Source of the DNA: Eledone cirrhosa
Taxonomy: Eukaryota
NCBI GenBank assembly: GCA_964016885.1
Contig: OZ024757.1
Coordinates: 34,596,001 to 34,660,000, forward strand
Direction: 5' to 3'
DNA: 64,000 nucleotides
Position 1 is the stretch's first letter, and each line of letters begins with the position of its first letter. Below, one piece after another: positions 236-63,747 of the stretch. The translations under genes were made by a program, and so were the position numbers. The notes beneath the pieces are model-generated. The model did not search any database. It saw only the letters and a list, made by a program, of their open reading frames with translations, and had not been told where the DNA came from.

Positions 236-63747
<63,512 letters not shown>

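Follow-up and report, generated by a model that had tools for sequence, protein, structure and literature searches.

In a 64,000-nucleotide stretch of Eledone cirrhosa DNA (contig OZ024757.1 of GCA_964016885.1, positions 34,596,001 to 34,660,000; hereafter the window), copies of a 10-mer, YRTYGAGYDC, precede TA tracts in repeats whose surrounding sequence mostly differs, which raises the question of what the 10-mer is and what it does for the elements that carry it. The original prediction held it to be a cis signal, read by a shared RT/endonuclease, that fixes the 3' end for target-primed insertion into TA repeats. The window is AT-rich animal DNA with many LINE fragments, and its TA-inserted repeats sit within introns of an ABC transporter gene, whose exons fall in minus-strand reading frames at 10597-11364, 15670-15900 and 29608-29952 (Pfam ABC_tran, ABC_membrane) and which we take, from a motif, to be ABCC-like.

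The 10-mer and its spacing from TA tracts

All nine of the 10-mers first listed are present, the plus-strand starts being exact and the minus-strand sites having been cited by their low ends (2623-2632, 11275-11284 and 23240-23249). Measured from the end of the motif to the first (TA)4, the distances are 52, 46, 44, 45, 52, 43, 46, 52 and 43 nt, in agreement with the predicted 43-53 nt or so; the TA run after 12226 is just 9 nt long. The pattern has 11 strict matches in the window, eight of them positioned before TA and three not (4404+, 4417-, 59197-), where the background fraction for such placement is 0.02. Site 23240- is a non-strict match that needs G>A at position 5. The carriers, which had been called unrelated, do fall into seven independent families, but 2632 and 27507 belong to one family and 11284 and 23249 to another. 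There are 79 clusters of (TA)4 or longer in the window and 158 flanks were scored, most of them without the motif, which only nine carry; it is also absent from the LINE ends that adjoin TA tracts in the window, and does not label TA-inserting elements at large.

In 8 of the 158 flanks the strict motif lies 40-55 nt from TA, whereas 1000 dinucleotide shuffles gave 0.05 on average and never more than 2; since the pattern had been derived from these very sites, the comparison is circular. When each of 200 shuffles was allowed its best pattern of equal information, the null gave counts of 4 (24 times), 5 (156 times), 6 (19 times) and 7 (once); the motif occurs in 7 of 103 non-redundant flanks, for a selection-corrected P of about 0.005. 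With a cruder clustering into 59 groups, which lumped 89 flanks into one low-complexity group, there was no excess (5 observed, null 4-5), and a blind pattern search on the real flanks yielded (AT)n, which is uninformative. The enrichment over shuffles that had been anticipated is seen in the window under the corrected test and lost under the cruder grouping, and the bare sequence motif is real but only modestly significant above chance.

A predicted bulged hairpin with a covarying stem

Together with an upstream arm, the 10-mer makes up a predicted bulged RNA hairpin, RCTC-YR...YR-[TY]-GAGY, of which it forms the 3' strand; the bulge measures 2 nt and the loops span 3-70 nt. The sites are as follows.

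28207..28216, plus strand: the 10-mer, 3' strand of the hairpin, with its bulge at 28209-28210; TA tract at 28269, 52 nt on
28188..28214, plus strand: predicted hairpin of the 28207 element, 5' arm from 28188, four outer and four inner pairs; the MFE fold of the segment by itself is a different one
23906..23958, plus strand: hairpin with motif 23949-23958, 12 Watson-Crick pairs round a TC bulge; in the MFE fold; TA at 43 nt
27431..27516, plus strand: motif 27507-27516 in a hairpin whose inner region is long, recovered in the MFE fold; TA at 46 nt
2623..2711, minus strand: hairpin with a long inner region, motif 2632-2623, of the 27507 family; in the MFE fold; TA at 52 nt including an A run
11275..11300, minus strand: hairpin with motif 11284-11275; TA at 46 nt; no inverted copy or HHR recognised
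23240..23265, minus strand: hairpin with motif 23249-23240, G>A mismatch, of the 11284 family; TA at 52 nt
23019..23040, plus strand: compact hairpin with a 3-nt loop, motif 23031-23040; TA at 45 nt
12189..12235, plus strand: hairpin with a compensatory G-C outer pair, motif 12226-12235; 9-nt TA run at 44 nt
50234..50255, plus strand: degenerate hairpin with two A-C mismatches, motif 50246-50255; TA at 43 nt
59854..59875, plus strand: new member found by structure alone, motif 59866-59875, CT bulge; TA at 38 nt
28402..28431, minus strand: probable member, last base of the motif T, arm with one A-C mismatch; (TAT)n run at 41 nt
17396..17405, minus strand: probable remnant, 3' strand alone, last base A, no 5' arm; TA at about 45 nt

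The upstream arm provides a held-out test, because it was not used in the original prediction. With the motif held fixed and the 90 nt upstream shuffled 1000 times, a perfect arm of 4+2 bp was observed at 7 of 9 sites against 0.55 expected (P = 9e-9), and at 6 of 7 when one site was taken per family (P = 4e-8); the sites that miss it are 23249, with one mismatch, and 50246, with two. Across 11 elements, 71 of 77 cells are paired; pairs were counted from coordinates, 17405, which has no arm, was left out of the pair table, and a MAFFT alignment of the 11 hairpins misplaced the 3' arms. The outermost pair is A-T in eight and G-C in one, the first inner pair is T-A in eight and C-G, A-T and T-G in one each, and the second inner pair is G-C in five and A-T in three, so that the variable columns hold compensatory swaps (A-T/G-C, T-A/C-G/A-T and G-C/A-T). 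These columns have 39 paired cells against 29.9 in row shuffles, a difference that is inflated by relatedness and by the choice of the best arm. The non-canonical cells comprise four G-T and four of A-C type, a balance that does not tell RNA and DNA apart.

A structure-only descriptor, which disregards the YR and DC letters of the original pattern, matched 11 of the 158 flanks, where the null averaged 0.98 and peaked at 4. Seven of these matches are cited sites and one is the new member at 59866; of the other three, 23187- was dropped as another register of the 23249 element, and two are false, 11087+ having its arm within the ABC transporter reading frame and 59961- being a GA repeat. Over the whole window the descriptor has 23 matches; nine stand at 35-55 nt from TA, and 14 do not. 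In MFE folds of 10 tails, the hairpin with its 2-nt bulge appears in three, the outer stem with a shifted 1-nt bulge in two and a partial form in one, and it is absent from four, among them the 28207 tail; folding z-scores run from -0.07 to -2.15, and by itself the hairpin does not fold strongly.

Two other identities for the motif, a tRNA B-box and a DNA-transposon terminal motif, were set aside on inspection, the motif being one-sided, pairing with an upstream arm and following an HHR. Among the best 150 of 156 matches in an Rfam scan no ribozyme is listed, and the sub-threshold matches of miRNA type on palindromes and microsatellites were rejected as chance hairpin matches.

Anatomy of the elements that carry the hairpin

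The carriers look like truncated Penelope-like elements (PLEs) inserted in (TA)n, in line with the insertion into TA repeats that had been proposed. Craig et al. (PMC8557442) describe PLEs in which a truncated copy is inverted, an HHR is present and the tail stands at one end only, and they attribute the TA targeting of such elements to the endonuclease linker. The corresponding parts in the window are listed below.

28091..28137, plus strand: minimal type I HHR core of the 28207 element, with AATAAA next (28137-28142); stem III 6 nt shorter than in sister copies
27596..28181, both strands: palindrome of the 28207 element, a tail-less inverted 5' copy plus a sense copy
28182..28268, plus strand: one-sided tail of 87 nt, made up of a TA-like linker, the hairpin and a 52-nt spacer
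22801..22951, plus strand: tail-less member of the 28207 family standing alone, its HHR intact (22855-22901); its short end is the same and lies in a TA tract
23712..23905, plus strand: upstream part of the 23949 element, with an inverted tail-less copy from 23712, a variant-core HHR (23774-23852) and AATAAA at 23860
24021..24177, plus strand: tandem sister of the 23949 family, with an HHR (24065-24134); ends at a TA linker without the hairpin
27203..27427, both strands: palindrome of the 27507 element, in which the 3' half of an HHR was read by eye; stops 4 nt short of the hairpin arm
2714..2967, both strands: palindrome of the 2632 element, which stops 3 nt short of the hairpin arm
59777..59815, plus strand: Hydra-style minimal HHR upstream of 59866, with a 5-bp stem I and a palindromic 4-bp stem III (by eye)

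A minimal type I HHR on the motif strand, read by eye against the format of File S2 of Craig et al. (PMC8557442), is full in 3 of the 11 elements, where it lies 43-54 nt before the hairpin arm, half in one and unrecognised in seven. Canonical HHRs in the window are those at 22855, 27691(-), 23774 and 59782. An inverted 5' copy is found in 6 of the 11 hairpin elements, one of the six not abutting a TA tract, and in five of these six the tail-less inverted copy gives out at a short linker that is TA-like, 0-7 nt ahead of the 5' arm. In the 28207 element the inverted copy has an intact HHR (27691-27645, minus strand) and stops 6 nt before the arm, and in the 50246 element the palindrome (49909-50234) ends at the first base of the arm; the exception is the 23249 element, in which a short palindrome (23291-23359) ends 25 nt before it. 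The solo copy that ends near 22951 is tail-less too, with the same kind of linker end. With tail-less copies stopping so close to it, the hairpin marks where the tail begins; the tail consists of linker, hairpin and a 38-52 nt spacer and comes to about 65-140 nt overall, longer than the 30-40 bp given for PLE tails in the available text of Craig et al. (PMC8557442). It was proposed that the motif fixes a single 3' end, and this does not hold, as members of the same families also end directly 5' of the hairpin.

A partial tandem (pLTR) arrangement may be represented solely by the 23774/24065 sister pair, with a TA run between the two. No PLE RT or GIY-YIG domain was found by Pfam in 150 of the 218 filtered ORFs, as expected for truncated or non-autonomous copies, and because of this the assignment to a clade rests on non-coding features. 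The TA tract at 23086-23191 is common to the 23031(+) and 23249(-) elements, which end in it from opposite sides. The region 27152-28431 is an insertion chain that runs TA, 27507 element, TA, 28207 element, TA and then the facing 28411(-) element.

Other repeats of the window were noted in passing. LINE fragments on the minus strand at 14136-15047, 25682-26275 and 56584-57486, and at 13863-14126 (RVT_1, PHD finger), have (GAT)n ends beside TA and no motif, and we take all four to be RTE-like. A non-LTR fragment at 54807-56192 (zf-RVT), in which we assume a restriction-like endonuclease pattern, has a 5' inversion (54807-55124 vs 55873-56192) and a TA/CATA microsatellite end, also with no motif. 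Long palindromes free of the motif lie at 39477-39926 and 44172-44452, the latter with a (CA)n tract. Young minisatellite arrays occupy 19053-22356, 46372-49809, 41158-42113, 60075-61220 and 33583-34240, with periods of 58, 39, 74, 72 and 172; the 74- and 72-bp units include TATAGAGTA, a near-motif with a TA bulge. There is a Mos1-type transposase HTH remnant at 59157-59360 (minus strand) and a DUF7041 match at 45450-45671 (plus strand). At 43620-43740 (minus strand), an HHR-like CTGATGA core is accompanied by a near-motif short of one G, about 56 nt before TA, which is possibly a decayed member.

Comparison with the Hydra clade and other known elements

The Hydra clade belongs to the PLEs with a C-terminal endonuclease (EN+). 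The ends of its six consensi in File S7 of Craig et al. (PMC8557442) were compared by eye, and at these ends the hairpin is clear in three, weak in two (Hydra-1_Amil and Hydra-1_Crog) and not clearly present in one (Hydra-1_Obim). In Hydra-2_Amil, from a coral, the exact YRTYGAGYDC motif follows the HHR as the 3' strand of a GCTC/GAGC hairpin that pairs perfectly around a TT bulge and has five inner pairs, and in Hydra-2_Ajap, from a sea cucumber, the hairpin likewise follows the HHR, with a TA bulge and a TA-rich linker ahead of it. Hydra-1_Ajap opens with the hairpin, repeats it within its leader and lacks a tail at the 3' end, an arrangement that fits a tail which is the 5' start of the next unit. 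A (TA)n target, a minimal type I HHR near the 3' end and a 4-bp palindromic stem III (by eye) are common to the window and the available Hydra ends, and in the accessible text of Craig et al. (PMC8557442) Hydra elements are reported with (TA)n targets and canonical HHRs, and the clade is recorded from an octopus. The two differ in the distance from motif to end, which is 25-26 nt in the two tailed Hydra consensi at the ends compared and 38-52 nt in the window, and in that the window copies are non-coding fragments; among the ORFs scanned there was no coding sequence in which the protein marks of Hydra (RWK, DKT, a CxCX5C linker, no CCHH) could be read. The carriers probably belong to the Hydra clade.

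Across the whole of the same archive (PMC8557442), at least 22 matches to six 8-mers were counted, a figure that misses matches spanning line breaks. The Hydra file, of 14 kb, accounts for four of these, each within a terminal hairpin, and 18 are in about 440 kb of Naiad and Chlamys sequence, where an arm was seen by eye at two. One of the two is a minimal internal hairpin in a Chlamys consensus. In the 3' UTR of Naiad_Mmer (File S5) there is the other, a 9-bp version of the bulged hairpin about 440 nt from the 3' end; it lies directly downstream of the stop-codon/SECIS region and may be due to chance or be a shared PLE element. The comparison covered Hydra, Naiad, Chlamys, one Poseidon and one fish Neptune sequence.

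Naiads resemble the window elements in their (TA)n preference, inverted 5' copies and tails, and are found in cephalopods, but are described as lacking the canonical HHR (Craig et al., PMC8557442, available text), which 3 of the 11 window elements have. A 17-nt stretch common to two Naiad 3' ends has no match in the window at 3 mismatches, and no ORF was found in the window in which the protein marks of Naiads (an N-terminal GIY-YIG, CxC and DKA) could be read. In the Poseidon element PAc of Anolis, as described in the available sections of Frangieh et al. (2024; PMC11167929), both strands of the target are cut and the RT initiates internally, at two positions between which the tail lies; the minimal RNA runs from +20 to +172, a protein-binding motif is inferred there and left undefined within about 150 nt, HHR cleavage is dispensable, a dimer is predicted and folding of the ribozyme needs help from the protein. 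PAc is like the window elements in having an HHR and then a tail, and differs in initiating in a stem-loop that is AC-rich, at an AT-rich target, with a tail of 30-40 nt, compared with (TA)n and about 65-140 nt in the window. Neither YRTYGAGYDC nor the RCTC/GAGY hairpin was seen by eye in the 361-nt PAc template, and the hairpin was not seen by eye at the ends of one Fundulus Neptune. The Neptune clade is characterised by microsatellite targeting with an HHR, which the window elements would fit, and by a CX2-5CxxC linker. A comparison with Penelope and Neptune tails had been suggested; the published clade that matches is Hydra.

Non-LTR retrozymes (10.64898/2026.07.22.740005) are, in the text available, likewise short, non-coding, HHR-bearing derivatives of PLEs. 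They are defined there by at least two consecutive tandem units with a complete HHR, whereas the window has dispersed palindrome-plus-tail insertions, with 23774/24065 as its sole loose dimer, and an HHR core was matched in none of the four tandem arrays of the window that were probed.

A possible docking site, and alternatives to it

The hairpin that stands at the start of the tail in these truncated PLEs, probably of the Hydra clade, is in our judgement somewhat more likely to be a docking site that positions the RT than to be anything else. From the structure, its positions and the anatomy of the elements as read in the sequence, we infer binding, initiation and two starts, as follows. A read-through transcript would run from the HHR end of one unit into a second unit, which begins at its 5' start with the hairpin, and an RT-GIY-YIG protein, supplied in trans, would bind the hairpin, while its endonuclease would nick (TA)n on both strands. 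One nick could then prime cDNA about 45 nt 3' of the bulge, giving a tailed copy, and the other could prime, or be resolved, at the UA-rich linker on the hairpin's 5' side and so leave a tail-less inverted copy; together these steps would yield palindrome-plus-tail insertions. The cis signal originally proposed would on this account survive in its narrow distance to one 3' junction, with the difference that the signal is the base-paired bulged hairpin, of which the 10-mer is the 3' strand. In favour of docking we count the held-out arm, the compensatory changes, the matches of the structure-only descriptor with its new member, the short ends beside the arm, the hairpin in Hydra consensi that played no part in defining the motif, and the internal RT starts of PAc. 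Several observations sit less well with a docking site: the clade is assigned from non-coding features, the HHR is full in 3 of 11 elements and no HHR is among the listed Rfam matches, Naiad_Mmer has its 9-bp version far from the 3' end, the row-shuffle excess is inflated, the hairpin with its 2-nt bulge is in the MFE fold of 3 of 10 tails, three of the six Hydra consensi show a weak hairpin or none at the ends compared and the tailed ones end 25-26 nt after the motif, and PAc, in the available account, initiates internally without this hairpin.

The signal might instead act at the level of DNA, with the GIY-YIG endonuclease reading the motif or a cDNA hairpin and cutting the TA-like linker, so that resolution of the intermediate gives the tail-less end. 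We regard this as unlikely, and it is nevertheless the best placed of the alternatives. The Penelope tail of D. virilis is reported to be required for recognition and cleavage by the endonuclease (Frangieh et al., PMC11167929, available text), tails are ascribed to EN-mediated resolution in the accessible text of Craig et al. (PMC8557442), the short ends lie at TA-like linkers beside the arm, and the non-canonical pairs are as compatible with DNA as with RNA. However, compensatory pairing over loops of 3-70 nt is unexpected for the recognition of double-stranded DNA, the 38-52 nt spacing downstream is not explained by such a model alone, and the ends of the PAc tail coincide with in vitro RT start sites in the sections available (PMC11167929).

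If the tail is where a following unit starts at its 5' end, the hairpin could also be an element of the 5' UTR that is retained because it serves transcription, translation, splicing or the folding of the ribozyme and that hitch-hikes into the tail, another feature setting the RT start. The two hairpins of Hydra-1_Ajap, in its 5' leader upstream of the ORF in the available consensus, would suit such a role, as would the 34-bp repeat of D. virilis, which scores as a basal promoter, and the protein-assisted folding that the PAc ribozyme needs (PMC11167929, available text). Against it, the spacing to the junction stays at 38-52 nt although loops vary from 3 to 70 nt and spacers differ among families, and both types of end lie at fixed sides of the hairpin; we consider it slightly less probable than a signal in DNA. 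That there is no selected signal, and that a hand-fitted pattern picks out the residual homology of old related repeats, could appeal to the two same-family pairs, the corrected sequence-only P of about 0.005, the 59-group test with no excess, the weak folding z-scores and the 14 of 23 descriptor matches of the whole window that are not 35-55 nt from TA, but is very improbable in view of the held-out arm test, the compensatory changes, the anatomy of the ends and the recurrence of the hairpin in the available coral and sea-cucumber consensi.

In telomerase RNA, template-boundary and anchor stems, and in hepadnaviruses the epsilon element, provide examples of a bulged stem that is bound by an RT and sets where copying starts or stops, and the hairpin of the window is likened to these by analogy alone. 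If the docking reading is extended along this line, the hairpin could tentatively be seen as an anchor like those of telomerase RNA, serving the enzyme that is sister to TERT and retained from corals through to echinoderms and molluscs. Bound to this anchor, a dimeric RT-endonuclease might start two cDNAs, one about 45 nt downstream and one just upstream, which would explain both the tail and the inverted 5' copy, and the hairpin might then be a portable RNA handle with which any cargo RNA could be written into (TA)n. This extension is speculative and clearly less likely than docking itself.

Significance

The elements are of a known kind, and what appears undescribed is the hairpin and its position between the two types of end. 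Neither the motif nor the hairpin is described in the available text of Craig et al. (PMC8557442), where the word "hairpin" has no matches, and no description of either was found in a literature search outside of which lay figures, Repbase Reports and most subscription papers. How PLEs choose their template, and what causes the one-sided tail and the inverted copy, are called open questions in the accessible parts of both PMC8557442 and PMC11167929. A small covarying hairpin between two types of end provides a precise target for mutagenesis and structural work, and it offers a marker, independent of protein, by which short repeats without an ORF can be placed in a PLE clade. Since the RTs of PLEs are the sister group of telomerase (TERT), a defined RNA anchor in these elements would also bear on the origin of RNA recognition by telomerase.
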